Source: Nanobdellota archaeon
Lineage (GTDB): Archaea > Nanobdellota > Nanobdellia > Woesearchaeales > JAGWAF01
Reading direction: 5' to 3'
Length of the DNA stretch: 64,000 nucleotides
Assembly (NCBI GenBank): GCA_038046365.1
Contig: JBBSWF010000020.1
Coordinates: forward strand, 14,201-78,200
Both the position numbers and the translations under genes were made by a program. Positions 2,843 to 51,799 of this stretch are shown here, piece by piece (the stretch's first letter is position 1; each line of letters opens with the position of its first letter). The notes under the pieces were generated by a model that saw only the letters and a list, made by a program, of their open reading frames with translations, was not told where the DNA came from and made no database searches.

Positions 2843-3451
2843 ATGAACACCCCCCAGAATCAGATTGGACTACGGATCTTAAAACTGATCCATGGATTAA
2901 AGACCAATTATGGAAGATATAATCTAGCCAAGATGATCGGACGCGAAACAAGAGAGGTCTCCATCCCGCAGGCAAAAGCGTTATTGTCACAACTTATCGA
3001 GAAAGGATATCTCAAGGAAATGAACATTGGCATCGGCTTCCCGATGATAGTCCTCACATTGACTGAGAAAGGGAGAGAATCGATAGAAAAAGAGGAAGCG
3101 CCACTCCTTGACCTCCCGAGAGACCACCCCGCGACATTCTCAAAGGCATCTGACATCGGAATAATAGACAGGATCACGCTGGAAGAGTTCTATAATGTGA
3201 AAAAAGAGCTTATACAGCTGGAAAAGAGGGAAGCGGAACTAAAAGACACCATCAAGAAGACAATGATCGAGAAGAACGCCTCTGAGATCAACTCGGACCT
3301 GATAGATATATACTGCCGAACAATAGAGCGCATCACTTACCCGAAAGAGAAGATAGAACGATTTGTGCCGCAGGAAATCATTGAAAAGATAAAGACACTG
3401 AATAAGAGCGTCATATTAACAACTAGATTCAAGGACACGCCCAGCGCTTAA
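2843..3451 (+). CDS. Hypothetical protein with a putative N-terminal winged HTH and a coiled-coil C-terminus.
   Basis: Clean ORF that follows the upstream gene's stop by 6 nt. The N-terminal HTH-like segment is GRYNLAKMIGRETREVSIPQAKALLSQLIEKGYL. Confidence 0.45.
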   Translation: MNTPQNQIGLRILKLIHGLKTNYGRYNLAKMIGRETREVSIPQAKALLSQLIEKGYLKEMNIGIGFPMIVLTLTEKGRESIEKEEAPLLDLPRDHPATFSKASDIGIIDRITLEEFYNVKKELIQLEKREAELKDTIKKTMIEKNASEINSDLIDIYCRTIERITYPKEKIERFVPQEIIEKIKTLNKSVILTTRFKDTPSA

Positions 3452-3976: not shown

Positions 3977-4594
3977 ATGGCAAAAAAGGAAGACGTCAGA
4001 GGATCAAACGGGGTGACCCGGCTGATATTCGTCCGGCACGGCGAGACCGAGGAGAACAAAGCCAAGATAAGCCAAGGGCAACAACCAGGGAAGCTCTCAG
4101 AGGAGGGGATCGCCCAGGCAAAGAAGGTCGCGGCGAGATTAAAGGATGAGAAGATAGACTTCATCTACTCAAGCGATCTTGACAGATGCCGGCATACCAC
4201 CCAAGAGGTAATCAAATATCACAAGGCTCCGGTGGAATACACGACCGAGGCGCGGGAGCGGTCGATAGGAGTGTTTGAAGGCAGGCCAAAAGGACAATTC
4301 CAAGAAGCAGAGATGAGACTCCCTGATTACAAGCCGGAAAAAGGCGAGAGCCTCAACGAACTGCATGAACGGGCAAGGAAGTTCATCGAAGGCATACTAA
4401 AAAAGCATCGCGGCAAGACGATCCTCATCTCAAGCCATGGCGGACTGGTAAGGATGGCGATGGCCAACCTGCTCGGAATGACCATAAACGACGCGATGGA
4501 CATAAAGCTTGGGAACACAGCAGTGAGCGTCATCGAAGTCTCATCTGACGGACGCGCCAAGGCAGTATGCCTGAATTGCATGAAGCATCTGTGA
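3977..4594 (+). CDS. Histidine phosphatase (phosphoglycerate mutase-like) family protein.
   Basis: The catalytic RHG motif is present (LIFVRHGETEENK), with a SSHGG-like second motif. Confidence 0.7.
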   Translation: MAKKEDVRGSNGVTRLIFVRHGETEENKAKISQGQQPGKLSEEGIAQAKKVAARLKDEKIDFIYSSDLDRCRHTTQEVIKYHKAPVEYTTEARERSIGVFEGRPKGQFQEAEMRLPDYKPEKGESLNELHERARKFIEGILKKHRGKTILISSHGGLVRMAMANLLGMTINDAMDIKLGNTAVSVIEVSSDGRAKAVCLNCMKHL

Positions 4595-4634
4595 CCTGGC
4601 AGGACCGGTCCATTCCTCGGGATAGAATGGCTCA

Positions 4635-10018: not shown

Positions 10019-10555
10019 TATACCCCCTCTTCCGGTGACGTAACCGTTTGCGGTACGGTCAGATGACACAATAGTCTACTGACTGAAAAACGATCAGCCA
10101 ACGACGGACTAGTCCTTCGTCGGGCGCGGTGTGGTAACTGCGCGGGCGTGATTGAACGGGGGTAGACCTGTGAAGGGTGGTAGAACAAAGTCCAAACTGT
10201 CTAGCTCTGCCAGCTATTGCGCTAGTAGCTCTTGCGTGAAAGCGAGCGAAGCGAGATTGAGCGATCTGAGTAGAATTCAGTATGGTCGCTCTGAACCGGA
10301 TGACTCGATTAGTATCGAGTATATTCAGGGGTTTGGAAACCAGGATAGCTTAGTTTTATCTGTGGCGGATATGGACTCTTTGTCAAGCATAGATACTTCT
10401 CTTAATCTAACCAGAGGATCGGGGTCCTTTGATGAAAAAGGCGCGATCACCAACAGCCCTCATAATCATATCTCACTATCAAACGCGGAGACTGAAACGA
10501 ATTCTTCGGACCGCAAACAACCAAGGACAGTCTCCTCAACGAAAAAGAAGGATAG

Positions 10556-13500
10556 ATGGAAAGCCAAGACAGCTTCCAAGCCCGACAAGTAGACGAAAAC
10601 CTGGCAGAATGGGCAAGAAGCCAGGATGGAGGTAGCGAAAGCTATGCATTTACACCACCTTCTGCCCCGATCGCCTGGAGATCCCACCATAGGGAACACC
10701 TCGCAGAGGTCTTAGGCGCACAGCCAAAGGATCCGAGCAAGCTGCAGCTGGCCATCGGCGTGGTCGTGCCGCTGATGTTCATCATCGCGACAATAATGAC
10801 CCTCGCGGACCCGAGCATAACAGGACTTGTCGCTTATTCAGAGCGATCCATAATCGAACTGAACGCGACGATAACAAGCTCGAGGAATATCACGATCGGG
10901 CTAAATGACATACCAATGAGAGTGAGAGTAAGCGGAATGGCGACAGGAAACGTGTCCATCATCCATAGACCCAGCGGCAGGAAAATGTTCGAGACAGCAA
11001 GCCCAGGGATTGTGGCTCTGACAGAAGAATGCGGACAAGCCTGCGCAAGACGCGACTATTCTAGCTCGGCGGACCCGCCAAGATACAACCTCACACTCGA
11101 GGTCTCTATCGGAGAAGGAGCTGAACTGAACATAACAACTATCGGATACACTTTCACACCCGCGAACAGACAGCCATTGTTCAACAGGAAACTCGCCAAC
11201 CTCACAGCCACTGCCAAGACAACTACGAAAATAGACCTAGCAGGATACGCGAAAGACCCGGACAACGACTCCATCACTTTCATCGCCACGAACTCGATGC
11301 TGGCAGACATCGAGGTGCATGGAAGCATCCTCCAGATAATCCCCAAGAAAAATGCGACAGGCCCCACAAGGTTCGTCGTATACGCATCTGACACGAAATC
11401 GATATCAAGAGTGACAGTCAACCTCGATATCAGACAAGACATTGGCACGGACGAGGCCGCAGCGATAAACGCGCCTTTTGAAATAGAACCCGACCTAGTA
11501 GAACAAACACAACTGGAAGACGGGACGCCAGTCATAATCGAGCTTGAGGAGCCGCAAGAAGCTCTCGGAGAACTGATCAAGGCCGCAAAGATAAAAGAAG
11601 AACAGACCCTGCTTGACACAAAAACAAGCGATGAGAGAGTGAACGTGAAGAGAAGATACAAGAACATCCCGGCAGTATCCGCAGTCATGACACAGGAAGG
11701 CCTGCAAGACCTGCTGTCGAACCCGAACATCAAAGCAATCAGAGCAGACGAAGAGTTCTCAATTAGCATCACAGACGAGCTCAAACAGGTCCACGCAGAG
11801 CCGCAAGCAAGGATCATGCCCGACGGGACGCGGCTAGATGGCGAAGGCAAGACAGTATGCCTCATCGACACAGGAGTCCAGACCACCCATCCAGACCTAT
11901 TAGGAAAGGTGATCGGAGGATACAACTCAATAGACAGCCCCGAATATAGCTCGACAGACATATCTGATGACAACGGACACGGGACAGCAGTGGCAGGAAT
12001 AATCGCCGCGCCAGACGGTATCGCGCCGATGGCAATGATATTCCCAGTGAAGGCGTGCGGCAAGACCGGTTCCTGCAAAGCAAGCGCGATATTATCCGCG
12101 ATAGATGCATGCATCGGGGCAAGATCGACTCATAACATAACAGTCATCTCAGGAAGCTTCGGCGATGGATTAGCTCATACTGCAGGCGACTGCCCTGACA
12201 CGCTTGGAGCCGCGATTACCGCTGCGCACGACGCCGGGATGACCATGACATTTGCAGCTGGAAACAACGGTTACCTCGACGGAGTGAACTACCCTGCCTG
12301 CGACGGGCGAGCGATATCAGTAGGATCATCCACGCAATACGACACACCGACTAGCTTCACCAACAAAGGATCAAAGACAGACCTTCTCGCACCAGGACAG
12401 AATGTCACAACCACCATGATAGGCGGAGGATGGGGAGAAGCAAGCGGGACAAGCATCAGCACGCCATTTGCGGCAGGAGCGGCCATGATAATCGCCCAGG
12501 GGCTAGAGCTCACAGGACGGGGTGCCACCCCAGAGGACGTGAAGAACCTGCTGATGAACTACAGCGCCAAAGCGATGGGAATGCCAATGCTCGACCTGTC
12601 GGCAGCGATAGCCGCAGCGACAGGGAAGAGCGAGACACCGATTCCCATCAATGGGACACCGACAAGCCCGGCTGGAAACGAAACACAGACAATCGCAGCG
12701 GAACAACACGCAGGATCCATCCAAAAACCACCGGAGAACCAGCGGAGACTAACAGGCGGCGCCAAACCAACACCATCTTTCACACCAGCCTTGGGGAAAA
12801 CAAGCGCGCTAGTCACGAGACAGATCGAGACAGAAGGAAAAGCCGACGTCATAATCGAACTTGAACTGCCTAACATCACAATGAAAGATGGATTCGGCGT
12901 GATGTCACTCAACCAGGGCAGAGCGATGACAAAAGATGGACTTAAGGACGCAGTCGGCAGGGCACAGAGATCATCGCTAGAAGGGATGAAGACTGCCTTG
13001 AACGGAACATTCGGGACGTTATCATCTGATGAAGACATATCGATCACCGACCAGCCAGAATACTTGCCATTCATCACAGGGACCGTGAGCGCGAGCGGGC
13101 TTGAGAAACTGAAATCAACCCGATCCGTGAAAGCGATACACCCCAACCTCATCAGAGAACTGCTGCCCACAATAATAGACCCAGAGCCAAAGGCTTCATT
13201 TGACATCAGCCTCCCGACTATAGGGGCATTATACGCAAGAGATACACTAAACTACACCGGACTTGGCGTGAAAGTAGCGATAATCGACTCAGGAGTGGAT
13301 TACACGCATCCAGACCTTGGAGGATGCACACGCGACCAATTCCTCGCAGGAACATGCGCGAAAGTTCCGACTGGATACGCTTTTTGCAATGCCACCAACT
13401 GCGGAAGAGACCCCGACCCAATAGACCAATTCGGACACGGAAGCCACATCGCAGGGATCATCGGAGGCACTGGAGTAGGCGGATTAAAAGGCATAGCGCC

Positions 13501-16500
13501 GAACGCGACATTCATCGCCATCAAATCATGCAATGCGACAGGAAGCTGCCCCGACGCATCGGTCATCGCAGGCATCGACTACGCAATCTCGCATGGAGCT
13601 GACGTGATAACCATGTCGCTTGGCTCAGTGCCGATACCAAACGACGGGTTGGACGTGATCGGGCAAGCAGCATCGTCAGCAGCCATGATGTACTCAATAA
13701 CAGTGGTCGCTGCCGCAGGGAACTCCGGGCCAGGGACAGGATCTATCGCGACACCTGCCGCAGGGCAAGGCGTGCTGTCTGTTACTGCATCAAATGACGC
13801 CGGAACGGCCGCGGTGAGTGACGACACGATCGCGTCTTTCTCGGATCGAGGACCGTTAGCGTTCGGACGGTTCGGCCCAGACATCAGCGCGCCAGGAGTC
13901 AGCATAAACTCCACAGTCCCACAGACCAGTCAATGCCCGTATTCAACCGTACTGTGCTCGAATACAGGATACAAAGTCAGCTCAGGGACCTCATTTGCAA
14001 CACCACACGTCACGGGAGCCGTCGCGTTGCTGCGCGAGCAAGACAAGAACCTAACGCCCGCTGAGATAAGATCCATCCTGATGAGCAGCGCAGCGAGCAT
14101 AAGCGGGCACCCGTTCGACAAAGGAGCAGGACTCATCAACGCCACAGGCGCGCTGACTCGCGCGACAAGGATGCTAATAGACGGCGCCGAGAAAGGAAAT
14201 CTAGAATCGATAGCAGGGGAATACGCAGAGTTCAACATCACAATAGTGAACAAGGACTCCGTGTCAAGGACCATCACACTGACAGCCGAGAACATCAGCG
14301 AGCCTGATGGCAACAACTCCATAGCAGCATCGTGGGACCTGCCACTGCCATTCACAGCGCCAGGAAACAACAACACCACAGTCAGATTGAGAATGAAGAC
14401 CAACAGCGGCGCGACGCCTTCGGTATACGGGGGGACGATTATTGCCACAAGCGATCTTAGCGAGACGATGAGAACGCCATTTACGCTGACAGTCCCGCTC
14501 TATGGAGACGGAACCATCTCGATGAGGACATCAGACAGCTCCACATCGTCAAAGACCGGAGACATATTCTACTTCAAACTTATATCGCCAAACGCGAGCG
14601 GATTCACCACTTACTTATCATGGCCGGACCCGCAATACGACATGGACATGTACCTATTCTCAGAAGGCGGCCTGCTGCTGACGTACAGCGCAGGGCTTGA
14701 CGACCCTGAATGGGTTGGCGCAAGCAACATCTATGAGAAGAATTACTGGGTCGCGGCAAACTCGTATTATGTGCCATCATCAGGAATGAGCTTTGAGGTG
14801 GCGACAGCGTACAGCAGCAACCTGACTATCATACCCAACACCATCCAGGCCAGCGCGGTCGCAGGCCAGACAAAACAGATGACGTTTGCGATCAGGAACG
14901 GCCTTGGACCAAAGAACATGACCATCGCGCTGACACGCCTGCAAGACAGCGAGAGCGTCGACACGACAAGGACAGCCCCTGCAGGGGGCAATGACTACTA
15001 TTCATTCACAAGGAACGGACTTAATATATCTGGAATGAAGACCTGCGACGTAATAATCAACTGGACAGGCGGCGCTGACCTAGACCTGTCATACTACACC
15101 TCCAATGACGGCGGCTCGACAAACACGACACGCCTTCCTTCGAGCGCACATGACAACGGAGCGCTTAACCAGACACGCGAAGCATTGATCGCGCACGATG
15201 TCGGATTCATGGCCGGTTATTACAGCGAATGGGGCGTAAGGACATACAACAAGAACAATTCTGCGACACAATACAACCTCACAGTAAGATGCAAGAGCAA
15301 CAAGCCCGCTTCAGAGGCCAGCGTGTCACCATCATACATACAGACAATGAACAACAGCCAGGAAATCAACATTACAGTGAATGTAGACACAACCGATCTA
15401 GCGCCAAATTCATCCATCGCCTATATGCTCGTAGCAAGATACAATGACACACGCGAATGGGCCCATTCAGCAGTGACCCTCACAGTCGCAGCAGCCCCCG
15501 GCGTCCACGCCGCCAATGGAGAATATGACGGAGGCACGATCAACCTTAGCAACGTGGCAGACATCACGAACATACCAGATATGACACTTGAAAAGACAAC
15601 CATTGGCAGGATCAGATGGAACGGGCCAATCGACGCGCGCGACGCCAACTTCACCAGATACACCACTATAAGCGCAGGCCTGATAGCAGTGAACGCGTCT
15701 GTCCTCCACCGCAGCATAAACAGCAGCGCCAACATCACTTTCTATGGAGCATCATGCGCAGGATATAAACTGCTGACTTCCCGAGGATATATCCCAGACA
15801 AAGAGGAAGCGACAGAATCCGGAGACATATGCAACGCGACTAGCGACCCGGCCTGCAGCAGCATCGCATGCAGTGGCAACACCCTGACGTTCCAGGCAGA
15901 CCATCCCACCACATTCGCGCTGCTAAACGGAATCACCAACTCTATTATCACCACGTCAAGAATAGGAGAATCAAACCTCACCGACGCCAACATCACAGAT
16001 TCCAGGGTCAATTCATCGGACATCACACTGTCTAGCATCAAGAACGCAAGCCTAACCAGAAGCATCGTGAACCGAACGACAATCGACAACTCCACATTCA
16101 TCAAATCGAACGCGACTGGCTCCAACATAAACATCAGCAGCGTGAACAACTCTGACGTGCTCAACTCCACGCTGATCGAAGTCAACATGAAGGACTCGGT
16201 CGCGGCATGGTCATACATAGACCCGTCCAACATAACAAACTCCACAGTCAACAACAGCTTCGTTGAAGACTCTGAGATAGACAACAGCTCGATATATGAC
16301 TCAAACGCAACTAACTCCACAGTGAATGCATCGTTACTGTCTCAAGCAGACGTGCGCAACTCCACAATAAAGGGGTCGACAATACACAACACCAGCATCA
16401 ACAACTCCAGAATCGAGAACTCCACAATATCAAACGGAATCAACATCAGCTGCGGGCAGACACTCACCGAAAACATAAACCTAAGCTTCAACGTGGTCGG

Positions 16501-19500
16501 GCACACCCCATGCTACAATGCCGGCGCAGACTCAATCACAATCAACTGCAATGGATACACAGTGACAGGCACAGGCAGCGCGCCAGTCATCAATATCACA
16601 GGACGGGCAGGGGTAAATGTACTCAACTGCAACTTATTTGGAAACAACGCAATCGCGATCACAAGGTCTAACAGCAGCAGCATAACTAACGTCAGCGCAG
16701 GATGGGGAACCATCACTATCTCAGGGGCATCATCGAACAACACCCTACAGAGAGCCTCAAACATCAGCGCCCTCACCATTGGAGACGACGCGTCATACAA
16801 CCGCATGAACAACATCAGCCTATCCACACTGACAGTGAGCGGAAACTGGAACAACATCACCAACAGCAGCGTGAACCTGACCGCAACGGTCTCCGGAGCC
16901 AACAACACCATAACCGGCAGCTCAATGCAATCCGGCGGAAACATCATCACGATCAGTGGATCCGGCCACCTCATAGCCAACAACACAATAAGCGGAAACA
17001 TCGCCGCAGGACTCCTCTCATCCACCAGGATCAGCGACAACAATATGACAAACGCATGCGTGGGATCAATTGCGGCCGTGCCAAGAAATGACATCACCAT
17101 CAGCGGCAACAGGCTGCTCGCCTGCACGGGAGGCGCGGTAGCAATCAACTTCGAACCGATCCAAAACACAAACTTCACCGTCGCCAACAACCAGATACTA
17201 TCATCTGACAACCCCTTGAACCTAGTGGGCGGAAACGACTGGAAAATACTTGGCAACACATTCAACTATTCCGGCCCGATAACCCTGACAAGCTCAAATG
17301 GCACTCTATTTGCGAACAACACAGTCAACAGCCCGGTCAACGCGATAGCGATAGACATCTCCAACCTGACAGGTTCAAGCATCAGGGAGTCGACTATAGC
17401 TAACGGCAGCGAAGGAAGCATTGGGATAAGGCTGAGATCATCGATCGAGAACGGCACGATGGAGAACCTGGGGATAGACAACAACACAATCGAAGGGTTC
17501 ACCAAGTGCGTGAGCACTTCGACCGGAGAGGACTACCCCGAGAGGCTCAACGGTACAAGCATATACGGCAACAAATTCCACTCCTGCGGAATCGCGATAG
17601 AACTAGAGGCCAATGCCACAGGAGCCAGCGCAGGCGGAATGAGAATCCTACACAACCGGGTCACGTCGACTAGCACGGCGTTGAAGCTTCGGTCTGCTAG
17701 CGGAGCAAGGATCGAGAACAACGCATTCAACGCAACAGGCAACACAAGCATCCTATTGATAGACAACCTGAATGCCACTATGATAAACACAACAATCACA
17801 GGCACCCTCAATGGAATCTCGATCATAAACACCAGCGGAATTATCACCAGATACCTCCAGATATACAACGCCACCTCATGCGCAGTGCTACTAAACCGCA
17901 GCAATGGAGGAATACTAACAAACCTCACTATCAACACCACATCATCTAGCATACATATCACCGGAGGAATGAACCACACGATAAACGAGACGAACGCGCC
18001 GCACCCAGTCATCCTTGAGAACGCGTCATACAGCATCATAAACTTCACAGCGCAGGTCAACTTCACGGCCCAATCCCCAATATCGTCTATTGTGAACCTA
18101 TCAGACAACTATATCACAATAAACTCTACTCTCGCGCCGCAGTTCAACATAAGCGCCATCCTAACCGCATACGTCTCATTCAACGAAGCCGTCCCAGGAA
18201 TAGACCAAGAAGACGACGGAACATTGAGCACCTGCCCGCTGACGCGATGCACCACGATAAGCCAGACAGGGTCGATATTCGTGTTCAACGTGACCGGATT
18301 CACAAGCTATGGAGGAATATCGCCAACCCCCGGATCAGTAATCGTGAACTCCACCATAAACGGAAGCATCGTATCGAACAGCACAGTGAATAACGCGACA
18401 GTCACAAACTCGACAATCAACAGGAGCGTGATAACAAACAGCACAGTCCACAACAGCACAGCATCCAACTCCAGCATCATCAACTCCATACTTGGCAACT
18501 CCACCCTGACCAACTCCACGCTCACAGGGTCATACGCGAACGCATCGCAGATGCCGATCGCACAGATCCTAAACAGCACAATAATATCCGCTCTTGTCAA
18601 CAGAACAAACGCCGAGAATAGCTCGATTCGATTCTCCAACACCACATCATCGATAATAAATGCCTCGTCGGTCGATAACTCATCAAGTACCACAAGCAAC
18701 CTGACCACCAGTATAGTGAACCTATCCACAGTCTCAGGATCGATAATATCCAACAGCAGCGCATACTCATCTAACATCAGCGGATCAATATCGGATAATT
18801 CCACAATACACAACTCAAACCTGTCTCTATCGAACGCCAATACAAGCAATATAGACCTGTCCGGACTCTCAAATACCACCGCCTACGCTAGCAGGGTAAA
18901 CACCAGCTCGACTGCCAACGCCACCTTGATTCGAACCAACCTCACACTCGCCAACATCAGCCTGGCAACCCTCGAGAACAGCTCAGTCCAGAACAGCACC
19001 ATACTCCACGGCAGAATCACGTCATCCACCCTACTGAACTCTACTGCGAGCAACAGCACAATCACCGTGTCCAGGATAGTGACATCGATAACAGACAATT
19101 CCACGCAATTATCGACGAACCTGACGCGGAGCCTGATGAATGCCTCGGTGAGCGAGAACTCCAGGATGACAAACACAACATCAATGGCAAGCAATATCAA
19201 TTCGACAACAGCAGACAACACCACGACCGCAGACAGCCGTCTTGAACAGAGCACAACCAACACCACACGGTTGTATGGCAGCACCCTTGGCAACTCAAGC
19301 GCGATCCGGTGCATAATCAACTTGAGCCAGGCATATAACTCCACACTAGCAAACAGCACGATCCTACTAGCCACAGTAAACCTGAGCGCACTTGATAACT
19401 CGAGCGCATGGCAGTCCAACATAACGGAGAGCACAGTCAACAAATCGCTGTCAGACACGAGCTCGATCTACATGAGCGTTATAGCGAACGCACAGCTCAA

Positions 19501-22500
19501 TAACACGGTAAGCGACAACAGCACCGCGTCCAACATCAGCTCGACCAACTCGACGATAAACTCCAGCATCGCAGTTAACCTAACGTTGATCGAGTCCACG
19601 CTCATGTCTGCTAACGTCAACAGGACATACGCGCACAACATAACCGCGACCAACTCCACAATAAAGACCAGCACGATCAACAACTCCAGAGCAGAGAACA
19701 GCACGATCATAGGAAGCAACCAGACCTGGTCGGATGTCAACAACAGCGACGTGCGCAACTCGACAATCTACAGAGCGAATGTCACCGCATCTGTCGTGGC
19801 AGGAAGCACGGCCGTGAACTCCTCCATAAACCAATCCGATGTGGTGAACTGCAACCTCACAAACGTCACTGTGCACAACTCCACACTCTTTGGCGAGACG
19901 ATCATCAATGACATCGTAATCAACAGCAGGAGCCTGGCCGCATGCGGGAAGGTGATAGGGAGAGACGCTATAATGAACCAGAACATCACGTGCGACGGAG
20001 CAGCCCTCATATTCAACAGATCGAACAATAGAGTATCATGCCAGGGATTCCTGATCCAAGGAAACGGGACATCTACAGCCATAGAGATCAGATCAAAACC
20101 CAACTCAAGCGCAGACGCATGCATAATAACAAACTACTCCATCGCCATATCTGTAAATGATACAAATGACACCACCCTAACAAATATGAAGATAGACCAA
20201 AGCAGGATAGGGCTGCTAATATCCAATTCATCTAACGTCACGATCGGCAACATGACAGTGACAATGAGCACACTGGTCGGCGCGCTAATAGACCCCTCAG
20301 ACAACATAACCATAGAAAACAGCACTTTCGCCGGAGGCGTGAACCCGATCATCTTGCTAGACACCAACAACTCCAGAATAGCATTCAACCTCATAGAGAA
20401 CTCCACAGGAGGCCTGAACCTGACAAACAGCTTCAACAACCGCATCCACAACAACACCATCCGCAACAACTCAGTCAACATCAGGCTAACAAGCGGCACG
20501 GGCAACATCATATACGACAACTTCCTTAGCGACGCAAAATCATTGCACATCTTCGCCGGAGCAGGCAACAACTTCAACACCAGCGGAGCATCTGGAGGAC
20601 ATGGAAACCGGTTCGACAACACCATCGCGCTTAGGATCTACGACCAGAACGGAGACGGCTATGGGGAGAGAGGATGGGACTGGCCATACAACTCAACGAA
20701 CAATGGAACAGTCAACATAAACGTGAGTGACTTAGGTCCCATCACAAGCAGACAAGACCAGGCACCGGTGCAAGTCGGAGCGTTCAATATAGTAGAGATG
20801 ATCTCCGGCGGGACCTACAATCAGATCGACCTTGACGGAGTATTTAGCGATCCTGACGGCGATCCACTCAACTACACGGTAAGCGGAAACAACAGCCTGG
20901 GAGTCACAGTCGATGCAGTGACACACGTCGTATACATATCGGCACCAGGCAATTTCACCGGAACTCAAATAGTCACATTCATCGCCAATGACAGCATATT
21001 GGCAGTGTCCGCAGGCCTGACCATCAACGTCGCCGCAAGCGCCCCACCGCCATCCACGCCGCAAGGATCACAAGGACAAGGACTAGCCGGACCAAGCGCG
21101 GAAGATACAGCAGGAGCAGACGCGGCAGCGGCGGCAGCAGCAGCGGCTGCGGCAGCAGTGACAGCAGCGGCCCCAGCAGTGACAGCCGCAGCAGCGGCCC
21201 CAGCAGCAGCGGCCGCACCATCGCCACCCTCATCAGTATTCGCCCCGACAGTCACAGCTGAATCATTCCGAAACATGATCGAGGGCATCAAGAAGACCGA
21301 AGACACCCCTGTAGCATGCGGATACAGGACAAAAAAGACTATCGAGAAAGAGGTCGTGCCCACCAAGACCAATCTCACGCAAGTGAAGCTGCCAGAAGGA
21401 TACAAAATGGCCACCGACCCGTTCACGTTAAGCTGCGACGGCGACTCGCTAGACCTCACACTGAACGTGCCTGCCGGATTCACAGATCTCAAAGCGCTCA
21501 GGTGCAAGAAAGACGGCTGCACCAACATCATTGAGAAAGAGGTAACCACAAAAGAGCTTGTATGCGGAGGCAAAACAGTCACCCAGATCAGACAAGAGGA
21601 GATCACGCAGCGCAAAGAGTCGCTGGCGCTAGAAGACCTCGGAGTGATAATCGAAGAAGGAACGACAATCACAAATGCAAAGAGAGCGATCCAGAGCGGC
21701 AAGAACAGGCTCGAGTTCACAAGAGAGATTCGCGTGCCATTCCAAGCGAAGATATCATCTCCAAAAAGCTCCGTTCCTTTGCCGAAGAACCCGAGCGCGG
21801 CGATAATCGGAACGCCGCTGGAGGTGACACTGCGCAATGCGCAAGGGCCGCTCGCGGCAAGGATCACACTGCCATACATCAAACCCGAGAACTACGACCA
21901 GGACAGCTTCGCAATATTCGCCCTAACAGATGGAGAATGGGAATACATTGAGAGCAGCACACGCGATGAGAACAACCAGAAGATCAGCGCGGAGACAAAC
22001 GACCTCCTCAAATACGTCCGAAACGGAGTCGCGCAATTCGCAGTCATCGGAACAGGATGCGCGGCATGCCAACAATCCAAACTAGCACACACATACTCGC
22101 ATGAAGGCGCGCGCGCAGCCATAATACTGCTACATGGATTCGCATCAAGCCCAAAGACATGGCAATTCCTAATAGACGAAATAGCGCTTACAAACCAGCC
22201 ATACCAAGTATACACATTCGAGTTTAGCGCATCAAGGCCGATGATGACAACAACCCGCGAATTCATGGACCTGATGGAGCTTGAGAGCGGACAATTCGAC
22301 ACAGCATACATCGTCGCCCACAGCCTTGGAGGGTTGATCACACAAGAAGCCCTCCACCAGTCAGAACTCGCAGGCACCAAATACACATGGCTTCCAAAAG
22401 TCAAGAAAGTCGTGCTCATAGGAACGCCTAATGACGGCACCCCTGGAGTTGACGTGTTCCAAAACCTGTTCCAGAGCCTTGTGAATGAGAAGAGCGTCTT

Positions 22501-24367
22501 TAACCTGTTCAATCTCAACAGCCAGGTGATGGGAGAACTGTCAAAAGGGATGCAAGTCCAAAGGACCCCCGGCATCAGATACTACGCGATAGCCGGGACA
22601 AAGCCATACGAATTCAACCTTGGAGCGTTCACAGTCTCTACCAAGGAACTCTTCAAGCTCGTGCTGCCAAACGATGGGATCACTACAACAGCATCAGCGC
22701 AGCATGTCGGAGGGCAATACATAAACGACAGCTGCAAGAACTACTACCAGATAAACCTCACGCACACAGACCTTGTCGACAACCCATTATCCAGAAGAGT
22801 CATAGAGAGAATAGTCGGAGAAGACCAGTACAAACAGACCGGGACGGCGCTAGGATACAACCAATACCTGAGGCTACAGATCGAGAAATGCGACCCGCAA
22901 GAACAGATAGTAATCATCGGAAAACCGATCAAGCCAGCGGAAGAACCTGCCCCGCTTGGATGCAACTGCGGAAACGGAGTGTGCGGAGTAGACGAGACGC
23001 CCGAGACCTGCCCCCAAGACTGCTCCGCGAAGATAGAAAGGCCCGCTCAAGAGATCGCGACAGAGGTTGCGGTCTATCTTGTAAGCACGCTGGTGTTGAT
23101 ATTCATACTATACCGAGCATTCAGGATACTCAAGAGGCGCGAGACCAAGAAGTTCTACACAAAGGAAGAACCGTACATCAAGACAGAAGAACGCGTGCAG
23201 ATAATCGGCGCAGCAGGCATAGAAAACATGGCTGCGCCGCCAATTCGGCCGAAACCATATGGATACGAAACCCTCCCCGCGAACGAGAAGCTGAGAATAG
23301 ACCTCGCCGACCTTGAAGAGGACCTCGACCGCGTGCTAGACGGGAAACCCAAACGACCAGTCTTCTACCCGCTTGAACTCAAAGAAGAGATAGATTCCAT
23401 CAAAAATAAACTTGAGATCAAGATCCCTGAGAAGAGAGGCGAAAGAAAGAAAGAAGCGCCTGTCCCTCCCCTGATAGAGACTTCTGAGATACGGAAGAGA
23501 ATCGAAGAGCTAAGGAACCAATATCCGCTCGCGGGCGGAAAGAAGCTTGAAGCGGCTGCCAGCTCAACTGAAGGCGCCACGCAACTTGGCAACGCGATCA
23601 AACGCGGATTGGCATCGATTCGAGAGGAGATATCAAGGATGCTAAGCGGAAGGCCTCCCCCAGCAGCCGAAGACGAGAAAGCCGAAGAAATCCATACAGA
23701 CAATACTGAAACGCCCGCGCCAAGACCGAAGAAAAGACGCATTGAGCCAAAACCACCTGAAGAACCCGCCTCAAAGAAGCTCGGATGGAAAGACGATGAG
23801 AGAGAAAAACTGCTGCAGCTGCTAGAAGAGGCGAGGAACCAGACCAGGAGAGTGTCTTTGGCGAAACAATCCCGAAGGAATGAGGAACTCGCGCGCAAAG
23901 AGCCGCCAAAGATCAGCGCGATGATCAAAGGCGAGCTCGACGACCTCTTTGAAGACACCAAACGGCTAATAGACGGCGCGATACTGCGGACCAAAGATAA
24001 GAGAGAAGAGAAGAAGAAAGAATGGAAGAAAGAGATCAAACTCAACGAAGCCAAAACAGAAAAAACACCCAGGCGAGAGAAGATAGACCTGAAAACGGAA
24101 CTGAAACCGGTTCCAAAGACTGAGAAAACCATTCCCGCGAAGCCTGCGCCAAAGCCGATCAGCAGACCGGCAATCCACCCAAGACCCGCGCCTGCTAAAA
24201 GTATCATGCCGGCGAAATCACCGCCGAAGAAGAGAGAAAGCAGCGTCTTTGGCGCTGAACTCTCCGGACTCGCAGACGAAGCAGAGCGACTCCTAGGACT
24301 CACTGACAAGATCAGCCGCAAGGCTGAGGAATCACAGAAGGCCAAGCGCAAGATGGAGAAGAAGTGA
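10556..24367 (+). CDS. Giant (4,603-aa) multidomain cell-surface protein. In order it contains an N-terminal signal-anchor TM, two subtilisin-like (S8) peptidase domains, beta-sandwich domains, a very long N-x-S/T-rich right-handed parallel beta-helix (PbH1-type) region, an Ig-like D-x-D-G-D module, a poly-Ala/Pro linker, an alpha/beta-hydrolase (GHSLGG lipase-like) domain, a Cys-rich module, a second TM helix and a K/E/P-rich cytoplasmic tail.
   Basis: Uninterrupted 13.8-kb ORF. The first S8 triad is DTGV(Q) (about nt 11865), HGT (about 11980) and GTSISTP (about 12450). The second is IIDSGV (about 13285), GHGSHIAG (about 13440) and SGTSFATPHV (about 13990). PbH1-like repeats include NNSRIAFNLIENSTGGLNLTNSFNNRIHNNTIRNNSVN. 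The lipase-like domain has LLHGFASSP plus AHSLGG (22130–22335). TM helices lie at about 10745–10810 and 23065–23125. Confidence 0.85.
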   Translation: MESQDSFQARQVDENLAEWARSQDGGSESYAFTPPSAPIAWRSHHREHLAEVLGAQPKDPSKLQLAIGVVVPLMFIIATIMTLADPSITGLVAYSERSIIELNATITSSRNITIGLNDIPMRVRVSGMATGNVSIIHRPSGRKMFETASPGIVALTEECGQACARRDYSSSADPPRYNLTLEVSIGEGAELNITTIGYTFTPANRQPLFNRKLANLTATAKTTTKIDLAGYAKDPDNDSITFIATNSMLADIEVHGSILQIIPKKNATGPTRFVVYASDTKSISRVTVNLDIRQDIGTDEAAAINAPFEIEPDLVEQTQLEDGTPVIIELEEPQEALGELIKAAKIKEEQTLLDTKTSDERVNVKRRYKNIPAVSAVMTQEGLQDLLSNPNIKAIRADEEFSISITDELKQVHAEPQARIMPDGTRLDGEGKTVCLIDTGVQTTHPDLLGKVIGGYNSIDSPEYSSTDISDDNGHGTAVAGIIAAPDGIAPMAMIFPVKACGKTGSCKASAILSAIDACIGARSTHNITVISGSFGDGLAHTAGDCPDTLGAAITAAHDAGMTMTFAAGNNGYLDGVNYPACDGRAISVGSSTQYDTPTSFTNKGSKTDLLAPGQNVTTTMIGGGWGEASGTSISTPFAAGAAMIIAQGLELTGRGATPEDVKNLLMNYSAKAMGMPMLDLSAAIAAATGKSETPIPINGTPTSPAGNETQTIAAEQHAGSIQKPPENQRRLTGGAKPTPSFTPALGKTSALVTRQIETEGKADVIIELELPNITMKDGFGVMSLNQGRAMTKDGLKDAVGRAQRSSLEGMKTALNGTFGTLSSDEDISITDQPEYLPFITGTVSASGLEKLKSTRSVKAIHPNLIRELLPTIIDPEPKASFDISLPTIGALYARDTLNYTGLGVKVAIIDSGVDYTHPDLGGCTRDQFLAGTCAKVPTGYAFCNATNCGRDPDPIDQFGHGSHIAGIIGGTGVGGLKGIAPNATFIAIKSCNATGSCPDASVIAGIDYAISHGADVITMSLGSVPIPNDGLDVIGQAASSAAMMYSITVVAAAGNSGPGTGSIATPAAGQGVLSVTASNDAGTAAVSDDTIASFSDRGPLAFGRFGPDISAPGVSINSTVPQTSQCPYSTVLCSNTGYKVSSGTSFATPHVTGAVALLREQDKNLTPAEIRSILMSSAASISGHPFDKGAGLINATGALTRATRMLIDGAEKGNLESIAGEYAEFNITIVNKDSVSRTITLTAENISEPDGNNSIAASWDLPLPFTAPGNNNTTVRLRMKTNSGATPSVYGGTIIATSDLSETMRTPFTLTVPLYGDGTISMRTSDSSTSSKTGDIFYFKLISPNASGFTTYLSWPDPQYDMDMYLFSEGGLLLTYSAGLDDPEWVGASNIYEKNYWVAANSYYVPSSGMSFEVATAYSSNLTIIPNTIQASAVAGQTKQMTFAIRNGLGPKNMTIALTRLQDSESVDTTRTAPAGGNDYYSFTRNGLNISGMKTCDVIINWTGGADLDLSYYTSNDGGSTNTTRLPSSAHDNGALNQTREALIAHDVGFMAGYYSEWGVRTYNKNNSATQYNLTVRCKSNKPASEASVSPSYIQTMNNSQEINITVNVDTTDLAPNSSIAYMLVARYNDTREWAHSAVTLTVAAAPGVHAANGEYDGGTINLSNVADITNIPDMTLEKTTIGRIRWNGPIDARDANFTRYTTISAGLIAVNASVLHRSINSSANITFYGASCAGYKLLTSRGYIPDKEEATESGDICNATSDPACSSIACSGNTLTFQADHPTTFALLNGITNSIITTSRIGESNLTDANITDSRVNSSDITLSSIKNASLTRSIVNRTTIDNSTFIKSNATGSNINISSVNNSDVLNSTLIEVNMKDSVAAWSYIDPSNITNSTVNNSFVEDSEIDNSSIYDSNATNSTVNASLLSQADVRNSTIKGSTIHNTSINNSRIENSTISNGINISCGQTLTENINLSFNVVGHTPCYNAGADSITINCNGYTVTGTGSAPVINITGRAGVNVLNCNLFGNNAIAITRSNSSSITNVSAGWGTITISGASSNNTLQRASNISALTIGDDASYNRMNNISLSTLTVSGNWNNITNSSVNLTATVSGANNTITGSSMQSGGNIITISGSGHLIANNTISGNIAAGLLSSTRISDNNMTNACVGSIAAVPRNDITISGNRLLACTGGAVAINFEPIQNTNFTVANNQILSSDNPLNLVGGNDWKILGNTFNYSGPITLTSSNGTLFANNTVNSPVNAIAIDISNLTGSSIRESTIANGSEGSIGIRLRSSIENGTMENLGIDNNTIEGFTKCVSTSTGEDYPERLNGTSIYGNKFHSCGIAIELEANATGASAGGMRILHNRVTSTSTALKLRSASGARIENNAFNATGNTSILLIDNLNATMINTTITGTLNGISIINTSGIITRYLQIYNATSCAVLLNRSNGGILTNLTINTTSSSIHITGGMNHTINETNAPHPVILENASYSIINFTAQVNFTAQSPISSIVNLSDNYITINSTLAPQFNISAILTAYVSFNEAVPGIDQEDDGTLSTCPLTRCTTISQTGSIFVFNVTGFTSYGGISPTPGSVIVNSTINGSIVSNSTVNNATVTNSTINRSVITNSTVHNSTASNSSIINSILGNSTLTNSTLTGSYANASQMPIAQILNSTIISALVNRTNAENSSIRFSNTTSSIINASSVDNSSSTTSNLTTSIVNLSTVSGSIISNSSAYSSNISGSISDNSTIHNSNLSLSNANTSNIDLSGLSNTTAYASRVNTSSTANATLIRTNLTLANISLATLENSSVQNSTILHGRITSSTLLNSTASNSTITVSRIVTSITDNSTQLSTNLTRSLMNASVSENSRMTNTTSMASNINSTTADNTTTADSRLEQSTTNTTRLYGSTLGNSSAIRCIINLSQAYNSTLANSTILLATVNLSALDNSSAWQSNITESTVNKSLSDTSSIYMSVIANAQLNNTVSDNSTASNISSTNSTINSSIAVNLTLIESTLMSANVNRTYAHNITATNSTIKTSTINNSRAENSTIIGSNQTWSDVNNSDVRNSTIYRANVTASVVAGSTAVNSSINQSDVVNCNLTNVTVHNSTLFGETIINDIVINSRSLAACGKVIGRDAIMNQNITCDGAALIFNRSNNRVSCQGFLIQGNGTSTAIEIRSKPNSSADACIITNYSIAISVNDTNDTTLTNMKIDQSRIGLLISNSSNVTIGNMTVTMSTLVGALIDPSDNITIENSTFAGGVNPIILLDTNNSRIAFNLIENSTGGLNLTNSFNNRIHNNTIRNNSVNIRLTSGTGNIIYDNFLSDAKSLHIFAGAGNNFNTSGASGGHGNRFDNTIALRIYDQNGDGYGERGWDWPYNSTNNGTVNINVSDLGPITSRQDQAPVQVGAFNIVEMISGGTYNQIDLDGVFSDPDGDPLNYTVSGNNSLGVTVDAVTHVVYISAPGNFTGTQIVTFIANDSILAVSAGLTINVAASAPPPSTPQGSQGQGLAGPSAEDTAGADAAAAAAAAAAAAVTAAAPAVTAAAAAPAAAAAPSPPSSVFAPTVTAESFRNMIEGIKKTEDTPVACGYRTKKTIEKEVVPTKTNLTQVKLPEGYKMATDPFTLSCDGDSLDLTLNVPAGFTDLKALRCKKDGCTNIIEKEVTTKELVCGGKTVTQIRQEEITQRKESLALEDLGVIIEEGTTITNAKRAIQSGKNRLEFTREIRVPFQAKISSPKSSVPLPKNPSAAIIGTPLEVTLRNAQGPLAARITLPYIKPENYDQDSFAIFALTDGEWEYIESSTRDENNQKISAETNDLLKYVRNGVAQFAVIGTGCAACQQSKLAHTYSHEGARAAIILLHGFASSPKTWQFLIDEIALTNQPYQVYTFEFSASRPMMTTTREFMDLMELESGQFDTAYIVAHSLGGLITQEALHQSELAGTKYTWLPKVKKVVLIGTPNDGTPGVDVFQNLFQSLVNEKSVFNLFNLNSQVMGELSKGMQVQRTPGIRYYAIAGTKPYEFNLGAFTVSTKELFKLVLPNDGITTTASAQHVGGQYINDSCKNYYQINLTHTDLVDNPLSRRVIERIVGEDQYKQTGTALGYNQYLRLQIEKCDPQEQIVIIGKPIKPAEEPAPLGCNCGNGVCGVDETPETCPQDCSAKIERPAQEIATEVAVYLVSTLVLIFILYRAFRILKRRETKKFYTKEEPYIKTEERVQIIGAAGIENMAAPPIRPKPYGYETLPANEKLRIDLADLEEDLDRVLDGKPKRPVFYPLELKEEIDSIKNKLEIKIPEKRGERKKEAPVPPLIETSEIRKRIEELRNQYPLAGGKKLEAAASSTEGATQLGNAIKRGLASIREEISRMLSGRPPPAAEDEKAEEIHTDNTETPAPRPKKRRIEPKPPEEPASKKLGWKDDEREKLLQLLEEARNQTRRVSLAKQSRRNEELARKEPPKISAMIKGELDDLFEDTKRLIDGAILRTKDKREEKKKEWKKEIKLNEAKTEKTPRREKIDLKTELKPVPKTEKTIPAKPAPKPISRPAIHPRPAPAKSIMPAKSPPKKRESSVFGAELSGLADEAERLLGLTDKISRKAEESQKAKRKMEKK

Positions 24368-26731: not shown

Positions 26732-27421
26732 GTGAGTTCCAGTGAAATGATAATCGACGTCCCGCTGATACGACAGCCCAAAGATTCAGTCGATTGCGGA
26801 ATCGCAGGAATAACAATGATTTTGGCGCACCATGGAATCAACAGACCGTTTGATGATGTCAAGAAAGATATAATGACGGACCATACCGGAACATACGCGC
26901 CTCAACTAGGAACCTACCTGATCAAGCAGGGTTTCGATGTCGAGATCGTGACAATGCACCCAGGATTATTCACAAAGAAACATCTGCCTAAGGACAGCAA
27001 TGACTCAAAGGCACATTTCCAAGGATTGATGCCAAAGACGAGCAAGGAACAAGACCGGAAGGTGATAGGCCATTTCATCGAATTCTTATCAGCGGGCGGA
27101 CTGGTGCGCGCGAAAAGGCCGACTGAAAAGGATCTCCTCTCAGAGATCGGCCAAGGAAGGCCTGTCGGCGCTCTACTGACCACCAACTTCCTGTCTGAAG
27201 AAGAACCAAAGTTCAATTTCCACTTCAACGTGATCACCGGAATCGATGTCAAGAAAGTATATGTGAACGACCCAATGTGGGACAAGAGAGGCGGGAAGAA
27301 GACCTATTTGATAGAAGACTTCTTTTTCGGATTATACGCGAGCTCATACGGCGATCTTGATAATGGGTGCCTGATAATGGTGCGGCCGAAGGGGGGCATG
27401 GCGATACACAATCAGGGTTGA
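26732..27421 (+). CDS. Peptidase C39-like (papain-fold cysteine peptidase) domain protein.
   Basis: N-terminal IRQPKDSVDCGIAGITMIL has a Gln before the catalytic Cys, typical of C39-like domains. Confidence 0.5.
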   Translation: MSSSEMIIDVPLIRQPKDSVDCGIAGITMILAHHGINRPFDDVKKDIMTDHTGTYAPQLGTYLIKQGFDVEIVTMHPGLFTKKHLPKDSNDSKAHFQGLMPKTSKEQDRKVIGHFIEFLSAGGLVRAKRPTEKDLLSEIGQGRPVGALLTTNFLSEEEPKFNFHFNVITGIDVKKVYVNDPMWDKRGGKKTYLIEDFFFGLYASSYGDLDNGCLIMVRPKGGMAIHNQG

Positions 27422-41266: not shown

Positions 41267-41267
41267 A

Positions 41268-41304
41268 TATTTGTTTACAAATCTAGCTTATTTGTAAACA
41301 AATA
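41268..41304. promoter_or_regulatory. 15-bp perfect inverted repeat (tatttgtttacaaat-ctagctt-atttgtaaacaaata). It lies between the hsdR stop and a TATA-like box (41306–41318) upstream of the RHH gene. It is a candidate operator/C-box and/or the hsdR terminator.
   Basis: Exact reverse-complement arms at 41268–41282 and 41290–41304. Confidence 0.55.
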
Positions 41305-41336
41305 GATATTTATAATAGATTCACTAATCGGCCTAT

Positions 41337-41756
41337 ATGACTTCACAAGAGTGGACCACCATATCTGTAAAGGTGACCAAGCAACAGAAGCAACTCATCG
41401 AACGGATATGCGAAAAGAATGGCAAGTCGGTCAACAAGCTTCTGAGCGGAATGATAGAACGGGAACTCAAACCTATGAGTGACCCCTCGTGTTTCCCAGA
41501 AAACCAGGGGATACCCCTAATCGGCGAGAACCGATTCTCCTACCTGCCTGAGAAAGACCAGTTCATCTGGAAGATAGATCTTGGCGTCCACGGATCCTCA
41601 ATACTCAGCGAAGAAGTCACGCCCGCATACCTTAAGAGCCTGTCCTCTGCAGTAGCGGAAGGCATCAAGCAGAGAGAGGATTTCAACGATAAACTGAATA
41701 GGGGCGCGGTCGTCCCGAAGAAACTCATCAAACTTGGGGTGAAACGCCGATGTTAG
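41337..41756 (+). CDS. Ribbon-helix-helix (CopG/Arc-like) DNA-binding protein embedded in the R-M operon. It is a candidate controller.
   Basis: N-terminal TISVKVTKQQKQLIERICEKNGKSVNKLLSGMIEREL fits a strand-helix-helix pattern. It overlaps the hsdM start by 7 nt. Confidence 0.5.
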   Translation: MTSQEWTTISVKVTKQQKQLIERICEKNGKSVNKLLSGMIERELKPMSDPSCFPENQGIPLIGENRFSYLPEKDQFIWKIDLGVHGSSILSEEVTPAYLKSLSSAVAEGIKQREDFNDKLNRGAVVPKKLIKLGVKRRC

Positions 41757-44568: not shown

Positions 44569-44768
44569 AACAATCTGATCCGCATAAGGCAGTGTGTAGG
44601 GTATGCAACAAGAAGTCCAAGGAATCTCCTTGCGAGAACTGCGCATATCTGATAAAAAATGGCGCAAGCGAAGAAACCATCAAAAAGATGCTAGGAGACA
44701 AACGAGTCAACAAGATATGGGAAGAGAACAAAGAAACTACGGATTCAACACATTCTGCGAAGGCATAA
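44565..44768 (+). CDS. Small zinc-ribbon-like protein (CxxC..CxxC), translationally coupled (ATGA) to the AlbA_2 gene.
   Basis: CRVCNKKSKESPCENC motif with the start overlapping the upstream stop. Confidence 0.45.
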   Translation: MKQSDPHKAVCRVCNKKSKESPCENCAYLIKNGASEETIKKMLGDKRVNKIWEENKETTDSTHSAKA

Positions 44769-44770
44769 AC

Positions 44771-44887
44771 ATGACACTGGATATAATCATGCCGCTGCTG
44801 GACAAAGAATCACAAAAGAAAATCAAGGCAAAAATACTTATGATGATGGAATCGAGATACATGCGCAAGGAGAAGAAGAGAAAATGA
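44771..44887 (+). CDS. 38-aa micro-protein MTLDIIMPLLDKESQKKIKAKILMMMESRYMRKEKKRK. A diverged paralog exists at 54745..54861.
   Basis: Protein-level conservation with a second 38-aa ORF despite diverged DNA. It is ATGA-coupled to the downstream gene. Confidence 0.45.
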   Translation: MTLDIIMPLLDKESQKKIKAKILMMMESRYMRKEKKRK

Positions 44888-51794: not shown

Positions 51795-51799
51795 ACAAG

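Follow-up and report, generated by a model that had tools for sequence, protein, structure and literature searches.

The stretch analysed here, hereafter the window, comprises 64,000 nucleotides of a Nanobdellota archaeon (GCA_038046365.1, contig JBBSWF010000020.1, positions 14,201 to 78,200) and carries on its forward strand, at 10556-24367, a single unbroken open reading frame (ORF) of 13.8 kb encoding a product of 4,603 amino acids (aa). To judge from its sequence, this product is probably, although with appreciable room for doubt, a giant membrane-tethered multi-hydrolase of a DPANN archaeon, predicted to be heavily N-glycosylated. The structural part of this reading is much more secure than its physiological part, and both are presented below together with the explanations that compete with them.

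An intact gene for a giant protein

The start of the gene is well marked. The ATG at 10556 lies immediately 3' of an in-frame TAG and is preceded, 4-9 nt upstream, by a Shine-Dalgarno-like GAAGGA run, a feature lacking at all other in-frame starts of the first 95 codons, which moreover fall inside the first hydrophobic helix. An identical product of 4,603 aa is encoded on at least six contigs from ENA and Logan assembly sources, one of which, 85 kb long, originates from the 0.2 µm fraction of groundwater of the Hainich aquifer well H52. Another ENA contig of 189 kb, contig_3284, is collinear with positions 11409-34200 of the window at 99.89% identity and differs from it by 4 mismatches and 18 insertion or deletion (indel) events, almost all in homopolymers. 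By this pattern the contig looks like the product of an uncorrected long-read assembly. Nanopore metagenomes do exist for the Hainich site (PMC12960796), and contig_3284 may belong to them.

The preliminary description of the window had already recognized the single 13.8-kb ORF and had raised the mis-assembly of several genes as one possible objection to it. Adjacent protease, beta-helix and 930-aa hydrolase genes would then have been fused by mis-assembly or through stop codons lost to a sequencing error, an artefact that could be suspected from the gene calls of contig_3284, which cut the region into several genes, among them three of 1,080, 1,522 and 930 aa, and from homologs of the C-terminal hydrolase cassette, which occur elsewhere as separate proteins (575-1,030 aa) that each possess an N-terminal helix. 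However, the gene breaks of this collinear contig fall on homopolymer indels, and indels of this kind likewise disrupt the neighbouring HD and TrmB genes. The 1,080-aa fragment back-calculates to a start at 10556, and the 930-aa protein, which surfaced in the cassette homology search, is 100% identical to the corresponding part of the product. Mis-assembly is excluded because the collinear contig differs almost only by homopolymer indels; in addition, the product is uninterrupted on the at least six other contigs, the gene contains no long near-identical DNA repeats that could collapse (only a degenerate 15-nt periodicity and a GCN tract), and other family members also join the cassette to long N-terminal parts, S8 domains included. 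The artefact, to which we assign a negligible probability, is effectively refuted already: the ORF is real and forms one intact gene. Its features are as follows (window coordinates, strand, residues of the product).

10556-10747, +: predicted cytoplasmic N-terminal segment, residues 1-64, beginning at the only start with a Shine-Dalgarno-like run; no N-x-S/T sequons
10748-10828, +: transmembrane (TM) helix 1 or signal anchor, residues ~65-87, followed by ITGL (88-91); Kyte-Doolittle peak 2.57
11168-11422, +: Big_9 Ig-like domain 1, residues 205-289, with DPDND; PF17963, E = 1e-4, borderline at 23.5 bits for a cut-off of 23.6
11483-11800, +: putative I9-type propeptide 1, residues 310-415; pro-region profile, independent E-value 3.9e-21
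11840-12571, +: subtilase S8 domain 1, residues 429-672, with D438, H475, N570 and S633; PF00082, E = 4e-39
12812-13141, +: putative I9-type propeptide 2, residues 753-862, weakly similar to propeptide 1; pro-region profile, independent E-value 1.1e-5
13265-14107, +: subtilase S8 domain 2, residues 904-1184, with D911, H961, N1056 and S1146; PF00082, E = 2e-52
14243-15925, +: beta-rich region, residues 1230-1790; transitively Fn3-like/PPC-like at ~1240-1440, the rest orphan
15938-16435, +: pentapeptide-repeat solenoid 1, residues 1795-1960, ~33 repeats; period-5 autocorrelation, in-register N-S-T sequon
16448-18175, +: PbH1-type right-handed beta-helix A, residues 1965-2540; PF13229 Beta_helix, E = 1.5e-11, in 3 stretches
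18341-19930, +: pentapeptide-repeat solenoid 2, residues 2596-3125, ~106 repeats, 69 sequons; register display, period 5/20
19931-20755, +: PbH1/NosD-type beta-helix B, residues 3126-3400; NosD E = 4e-15, Beta_helix E = 3e-13, period 22
20759-21004, +: Big_9 Ig-like domain 2, residues 3402-3483, with DPDGD; PF17963, E = 7e-5, 24.1 bits for a cut-off of 23.6
21038-21250, +: poly-Ala/Pro/Gly linker, residues 3495-3565, read from the translation; GCN tandem repeat in the DNA, collinear in contig_3284
21374-23026, +: conserved cassette, residues 3607-4157, made of two beta-sandwiches, a lipase-like alpha/beta hydrolase and a 5-Cys motif
23054-23122, +: TM helix 2, residues ~4167-4189, followed by the basic stretch YRAFRILKRRETKK; hydropathy peak 2.36
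23123-24367, +: K/E/P-rich predicted cytoplasmic tail by composition, residues 4190-4603, 414 aa plus stop; one sequon

The N-terminal helix and the second TM helix announced by the preliminary description were both recovered by hydropathy, and the tail of about 410 aa was retrieved with its K/E/P-rich composition. Between the two helices lie ~4,080 residues that hold 206 of the 207 sequons of the protein, the remaining one being in the tail and none in residues 1-64. Sequons are 2.2 times more numerous than expected from shuffles of local composition (94 +/- 7.6, z = 15), and their density reaches 4.5 per 100 aa, compared to 0-1.5 in the other proteins of the window. This confinement of the sequons between the helices supports a predicted topology in which both termini are cytoplasmic and enclose a large ectodomain.

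The double anchoring initially proposed is nevertheless doubtful as a permanent state. The two helices and the sequons between them stand, but the N-terminal attachment may be only transient, since the putative I9-type propeptides before the S8 domains would normally be auto-cleaved and an ITG-type motif follows the first helix, so that the cytoplasmic location of both termini may describe the precursor only. Of 83 N-termini of the family described below, the members of which are designated by P numbers, 25 contain this motif, [ILV]-T-G-[FLMYIV], at a distance of 5-25 residues behind the N-terminal helix (carriers include P0003, P0005, P0131, P0138, P0151, P0170, P0181, P0189, and P0214). Given a background of 0.012 per 30 aa, this is an excess of about 25-fold; PTGF, PTGM, ITSL, and similar variants are frequent as well, and the giant protein presents ITGL at residues 88-91 (window 10817-10828). 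We know of no description of this motif, which may represent a signal-peptidase site or another processing or recognition site.

Both S8 catalytic triads claimed at the outset were found again, by Pfam (135 and 178.5 bits with PF00082 for a cut-off of 21.8) as well as by alignment to solved subtilisins across the DTG, HGT, and GTSxAxP motifs, with the Asp-His-Ser order and the oxyanion Asn in place. The first domain aligns to intracellular subtilisin, thermitase, and proteinase K, and the second to 8jmw, Tk-SP (3afg, E = 4e-33), and subtilisins. Judged by their residue sets, both subtilases are catalytically complete. As they are only 30% identical to each other, their duplication is old. Each domain is preceded by a putative I9-type propeptide, detected with a profile built from nine homologous pro-regions. 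The Pfam family Inhibitor_I9 (PF05922) matches propeptide 1 below its cut-off (E = 0.0023, 19 bits for 21.2 required), and 8 of the 11 aligned pro-regions match I9 at E <= 0.1, the best at 1.6e-5. The beta-sandwich domains said to follow the proteases (1230-1790) could be traced at ~1240-1440 and transitively only, through P0016, P0023, and P0025, which align there via their fn3_5/PPC regions; the rest of this region is without homolog.

One third of the protein (residues 1795-3400, with 153 sequons) is a beta-solenoid, which had been described as about 1,600 aa of PbH1 repeats. Its solenoid nature and its Beta_helix and NosD parts stand, whereas ~700 residues are pentapeptide repeats; the Beta_helix and NosD parts cover ~850 of the ~1,600 residues. 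The solenoid is thus composite, in the order pentapeptide, PbH1, pentapeptide, PbH1. Beta_helix scores 44.6 bits within 2114-2640 and 50.2 bits at 3197-3339, and NosD (PF05048) 56.1 bits at 3184-3350. In the two pentapeptide arrays, which both follow a strict period of 5/20 and are 31-36% identical to each other, the central position i is Ile, Val, or Leu, Ser occupies i-2, Thr or Ser is found at i-1 instead of the canonical Asp or Asn, and Asn stands at i+2, which places an N-S-T sequon in register with the repeat. The match to Pentapeptide_4 remains sub-threshold (E = 4e-8, 33.5 bits for a cut-off of 38). An AlphaFold2 model of residues 1795-1964 exhibits an EEE-- pattern throughout, its predicted local distance difference test score (pLDDT) being 71-86 over the first 70 residues and 59 overall. 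Among the top 40 Foldseek matches in PDB, almost all are pentapeptide-repeat proteins or designed beta-solenoids (AlbG, HetL, MfpA, QnrB1), and PbH1 enzymes appear from rank 41 only.

In known structures of pentapeptide-repeat proteins, the side chains at i and i-2 point inward, from which an outward orientation is expected for the Asn of the sequon (i+2) and for the Thr at i-1. With 4.8 Å per coil, we estimate that the whole solenoid would measure ~30 nm if fully extended. For a spacer that is rigid and coated with glycans, a pentapeptide solenoid bearing a sequon on each repeat face is an unusual construction. On its C-terminal side, the Ig-like D-x-D-G-D module noted previously corresponds to the second Big_9 domain with its DPDGD sequence, and the poly-Ala/Pro linker was found as announced, at residues 3495-3565.

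A recurrent Cys-containing module of ~90 aa, whose C-terminal end reads '...F.V..F(S/T).Y', is located in front of each pentapeptide array (residues 1690-1790 and 2541-2595, window ~15624-15925 and ~18176-18340). It belongs to no Pfam family, is also present in P0011 (~660-770 and 1330-1440) and, by BLAST of residues 2472-2600, matches P0189, P0204, P0217, P0228, and others.

The hydrolase cassette and its family

The hydrolase of the cassette presents an HG oxyanion motif (3860-61), the nucleophile S3923 in AHSLGG, D4040, and H4070. A nucleophile elbow of the form Sm-x-Ser-x-Sm, the acid and the His in canonical order, the HG motif, and an alpha/beta fold identify it as an alpha/beta hydrolase. 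The preliminary description was right about this enzyme and its Ser-Asp-His triad but not about the elbow, given as GHSLGG; the sequence AHSLGG is an Ala-type elbow, as in Bacillus lipases. The announced Cys knot corresponds to a 5-Cys motif at 4136-4156 (C-x-C-G-N-G-x-C...C-P-x-D-C), and part of the cassette matches the Pfam family DUF7379.

Nine homologs align over the whole cassette at 29-41% identity in proteins of 575-1,030 aa, and the complete ones among these proteins have an N-terminal helix and a C-terminal TM helix of their own. A profile of the family, searched against 1.84 billion cluster representatives, retrieved 237 matches at E <= 1e-30 and 427 at E <= 1e-10. The best 150 representatives measure 415-7,646 aa and mostly carry the cassette at their C-terminal end. 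In an alignment of the giant protein with 153 family members (154 sequences), the triad is almost invariant (Ser in 150, Asp in 154, His in 152), 144-152 sequences keep the residues of the HG oxyanion motif, each of the five cysteines is conserved in 148-151, and all invariant columns of the family are present in the giant protein. The Cys motif was recognized in 142 of the 153 members and is followed within 80 aa by a TM helix in 136 of these 142. The tails that come next have a median length of 142 aa and extend up to 1,020 aa.

Cassette, TM helix, and charged tail thus form the shared base of a modular family, on which N-terminal modules have been shuffled. Sixteen of the 153 members reach at least 3,000 aa, and most giant members examined combine a K/R/E-rich C-terminus and an N-terminal helix with a sequon number of 167-370. 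The domain order, which it had been suggested to verify in relatives, is kept for S8, beta-helix, and cassette in at least two of them. P0164 (1,685 aa) shows Big_9, S8, Beta_helix/NosD, cassette, and TM in the same order as the giant protein, and P0192 (5,074 aa, from an archaeal metagenome-assembled genome) successively carries a helix, S8, a beta-helix, a laminin-G domain (Laminin_G_3), a second beta-helix, the cassette, and several hydrophobic segments that are probably TM helices, ~720 aa following its Cys motif. Similarly, P0204 (7,646 aa) carries S8 ahead of the cassette. The best relative of the N-terminal part, P0011, is a Woesearchaeota 'S8 family serine peptidase' of 2,719 aa composed of a helix, propeptide, S8, a sequon-rich beta-helix, a C-terminal TM helix, and a basic tail, without the cassette.

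Consequently, the architecture cannot be called unusual, as it had been: helix, sequon-rich ectodomain, cassette, TM helix, and charged tail are the standard plan of a family of at least 237 representatives, which share, in addition to the base, a high sequon density and an N-terminal helix often followed by ITG[FL]. What sets the giant protein apart is its pair of tandem pro-S8 units, found in no other of the top 150 representatives by BLAST against the giant protein, and its two long pentapeptide arrays with N-S-T. The closest relatives are 28-42% identical over shared modules, and neither homology searches by segment nor a whole-protein contig scan found a full-length relative.

The family crosses domains, since the gene of P0009 (1,030 aa; locus L009, GCA_030690415.1, 6001-9093) adjoins bacterial genes for L36, S13, S11, S4, L17, and rpoA, which suggests a cross-domain spread among small-celled organisms. 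Members, which are surface proteins of a DPANN/CPR-like kind, bear database names as varied as 'alpha/beta hydrolase', 'parallel beta-helix repeat protein', 'S8 family serine peptidase', and 'hypothetical protein'. No paper describing the cassette family was found in a literature coverage so limited that this absence weighs little. No single motif runs through the tails family-wide, only sub-family motifs and basic C-termini. Two such motifs, 'KLLKSGWSEDIVDEAF' and 'A..Y..F..EY......K..F......L..EV.R', were observed among sub-families that include P0003, P0005, P0006, P0116, and P0188, and P0143, P0148, P0151, P0156, and P0158; neither matches the tail of the giant protein; they hint at different cytoplasmic partners for the tail sub-families.

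Proposed function and competing explanations

We propose that the N-terminal helix directs the protein to export by Sec and that an archaeal oligosaccharyltransferase would glycosylate the outward Asn residues of the solenoid. I9 prodomains are intramolecular chaperones that are auto-cleaved; in the present case, their cleavage would probably sever the N-terminal helix, the first Big_9 domain, and the first propeptide from the mature chain, and would possibly also separate S8 domain 1 from S8 domain 2. The mature form would be a type I membrane protein, held mainly by its C-terminal TM helix and composed, from the inside outward, of the tail, the TM helix, a juxtamembrane hydrolase, a flexible Ala/Pro hinge, the rigid glycan-coated solenoid, and the proteases, which would sit at or near the distal end of this protease-resistant stalk. 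Such a device could degrade the S-layer of a host, or environmental protein and ester substrates, and thereby feed an auxotrophic episymbiont with few biosynthetic pathways; alternatively or in addition, it might serve in attaching to the host surface and opening it. The range of conceivable roles thereby covers attack on the surface of a host or prey and the scavenging of nutrients or lipids. A role in host interaction is suggested by analogy with the SPEARE proteins discussed below and with other giant proteins.

Several observations speak against this proposal. The hydrolase adjoins the membrane of its own cell rather than the distal end, which fits poorly with a direct attack on host membranes, and the ether lipids of archaea are not substrates of esterases. 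No oligosaccharyltransferase gene was seen among the window ORFs scanned. Residues 1230-1790 yielded no Pfam match, no PDB sequence match, and no homolog when queried alone, and for the tail (4190-4603), no Pfam domain was retrieved at E <= 1 and no fold is assigned. Finally, no gene neighbourhood that would point to a pathway is conserved across the loci of four relatives.

Two other explanations accept the gene as intact. The giant chain might be a polyprotein precursor rather than the working molecule. Once exported, it would be divided by its own subtilases, through cuts at the I9 junctions and perhaps at other sites, into separate enzymes that are either secreted or loosely attached, and only cassette and tail would stay in the membrane. 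We hold this to be unlikely, although serious enough to be kept in mind: a putative I9-type propeptide precedes each S8 domain and I9 prodomains are cleaved autocatalytically, the flexible Ala/Pro linker lies directly before a module that exists elsewhere as a stand-alone protein, and parts of SPEARE proteins were recovered in different gel size fractions (PMC6642349). On the contrary, no cleavage sites have been identified, and many divergent relatives keep one chain, arguing that covalent linkage is useful. This explanation is furthermore a variant of the tethered multi-hydrolase rather than an alternative to it.

An improbable explanation, to which we give clearly less credit, holds the protein to be a structural or adhesive component of the envelope, such as an S-layer substitute or a glycocalyx fibre, with enzymes devoted to maturation or remodelling. 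A solenoid that makes up a third of the chain with its 153 sequons, the two Ig-like Big_9 modules, and the position of the hydrolase beside its own membrane would all suit such a role, and three relatives are called 'parallel beta-helix repeat protein' by the Joint Genome Institute (JGI). However, all three catalytic sites are intact, and the conservation of the cassette triad in at least 150 of 154 sequences indicates selection on catalysis. An S-layer protein would also be expected to be shorter and to form a lattice, and domain scans detected no S-layer domain. In the case of a purely structural function, the protein would amount to an ordinary, if well documented, representative of a large family.

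The tethered multi-hydrolase, which remains the reading we prefer, can be extended into a bolder conjecture, a long shot at present. In this view, a family of modular and often giant surface fibres, spanning both domains and not described so far, would work from the cassette as its base. Its distal modules, in the giant protein two subtilases carried on a glycan-shielded pentapeptide/PbH1 solenoid, would breach or bind the host envelope, after which the lipase-, LCAT-, or PGAP1-like enzyme at the base would capture or remodel host lipids. If this were true, the hydrolase or acyltransferase would serve cells unable to make their own lipids, and the variable tail would couple the device to the cell interior.

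Groundwater is rich in DPANN archaea and in bacteria of the candidate phyla radiation (CPR), which depend on other cells. For the attachment of such cells to hosts and for their uptake of peptides and lipids, giant surface proteins come first among the candidates, and to our knowledge SPEARE is the only one with experimental support. The present protein provides a verified complete example with three intact enzyme sites, established independently from short-read and long-read-like assemblies. It should come as little surprise in itself to a DPANN specialist, but the intact cassette and the solenoid with in-register sequons are testable leads. Common to hundreds of otherwise different proteins, the cassette allows metagenomes to be searched for proteins of this type and is at the same time a domain small enough to be expressed.

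Genomic surroundings and comparison with known systems

Exact copies of the neighbouring proteins are deposited at NCBI (MEK6959786-MEK6959816, 'MAG: Nanoarchaeota archaeon', from a metagenome-assembled genome), the neighbouring genes are archaeal in character (TrmB, DUF2284, HVO_A0114), and, for each of its two ends, the named relatives of the giant protein come from Candidatus Woesearchaeota. On these grounds, the source is a DPANN archaeon (GTDB Nanoarchaeota / Woesearchaeota-like) from anoxic groundwater, in agreement with the small-genome episymbiotic lineages evoked in the preliminary description. No species-level relative was found among GTDB representatives, the whole-protein contig scan having matched only unrelated bacterial S8 proteins, and Rfam and tRNA scans revealed no rRNA or tRNA gene in the window.

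Immediately upstream, a Ser/Thr-rich ORF of 140 aa with a basic N-terminus (VKGGRTKSKLSSS...; 10170-10592, forward strand) overlaps the start of the giant gene by 37 nt. P0192 likewise has a small start-overlapping ORF (locus L006, 5688-6014), which begins MQGRGRSKKKNSSS; the similarity between the two is not significant (E = 1.6) and neither matches a family. Downstream by 2.4 kb and two genes lies a stand-alone C39-like cysteine peptidase (Peptidase_C39 / C39_2, 229 aa; 26732-27421, forward strand) without ABC-transporter domain, which is not conserved beside the relatives examined. At 1184-2836 (forward strand), a 550-aa protein contains a strong plasmid pRiA4b ORF-3-like domain (PF07929, E = 2e-57), its start varying with the gene caller of the assembly (541 or 550 aa).

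Further along the window, a type I restriction-modification locus (38435-46705) encodes HsdR (38435-41266), HsdM (41750-43234), and HsdS (45515-46705) and is interrupted by a gene with Schlafen/AlbA_2, HATPase_c_4, and winged helix-turn-helix domains (43231-44568); the GC content falls to 0.38-0.42 at 44-48 kb. The run of virus-like or tail-fibre-like genes at 49385-63463 may be an integrated or degraded viral element. It comprises Bro-N (49385-50218), a SEC-C motif protein, a SWIM protein, a Peptidase_S74 'chaperone of endosialidase' (59134-60294), a Shufflon_N-like protein of 623 aa (60415-62286), and Gly_rich_2 (62375-63463).

Among known systems, the SPEARE proteins of Nanohaloarchaeota are giant proteins with a proposed role in host interaction, which were shown to be expressed and processed (Hamm et al., 2019; PMC6642349), their ectodomain and their TM and cytoplasmic parts being recovered in different gel size fractions (PMC6642349). 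Like them, the present protein is a giant, mostly extracytoplasmic DPANN protein with an N-terminal serine protease, a TM helix near the C-terminus, and a cytoplasmic C-terminus. However, the defining features of SPEARE proteins are laminin-G domains and, as their most conserved part, a type III restriction-enzyme domain in the cytoplasm (PMC6642349), instead of which the giant protein displays a lipase-like cassette and beta-solenoids. The restriction-enzyme domain was absent from the tail (no Pfam match at E <= 1) and from whole-protein scans, and Pfam scans of the giant protein gave no Laminin_G match, only the Big_9 Ig-like modules, and no BC-toxin-like domain. Lacking both the restriction-enzyme and the laminin-G domains, it is not a member of SPEARE.

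The closest functional analogues of the protease end are the envelope subtilases, namely the cell-envelope proteinases (CEPs) of the lactococcal PrtP/lactocepin type and the archaeal pyrolysin, Tk-SP, and the STABLE protease on the tetrabrachion stalk of Staphylothermus. These enzymes have a nutritional role in auxotrophs. As in the giant protein, a tethered pro-S8 unit is followed by Fn3/PPC-like beta-sandwiches and by a long spacer that holds the enzyme off the cell. They differ in having a single protease, a length of 1,400-2,000 aa, and LPXTG or S-layer attachment or a coiled-coil stalk, and in lacking a beta-solenoid with hundreds of sequons, a second class of hydrolase, and a long cytoplasmic tail. 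No LPXTG was noticed at the C-terminus of the giant protein when its translation was read, no dedicated search having been made, and Pfam scans found no PA domain; the predicted anchor is a TM helix with the 414-aa tail.

The giant proteins of Omnitrophota ('archaeovorins' and dockerin-type) are bacterial, exceed 10,000 aa, and mostly contain numerous TM regions and SecA-DEAD domains (bioRxiv 10.1101/2023.11.21.568195). The likeness lies in their great length, their largely extracellular location, and their combination of several enzymes, in cells that are ultra-small and dependent on a host; S8 and C39 peptidase domains occur in some of these proteins, whereas the present protein is archaeal, restricted to 4,603 aa, and devoid of numerous TM regions and of SecA-DEAD. 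It belongs to the widespread cassette family, is therefore not a one-off, and ranks among the giant multi-enzyme surface proteins of episymbiotic nano-organisms.

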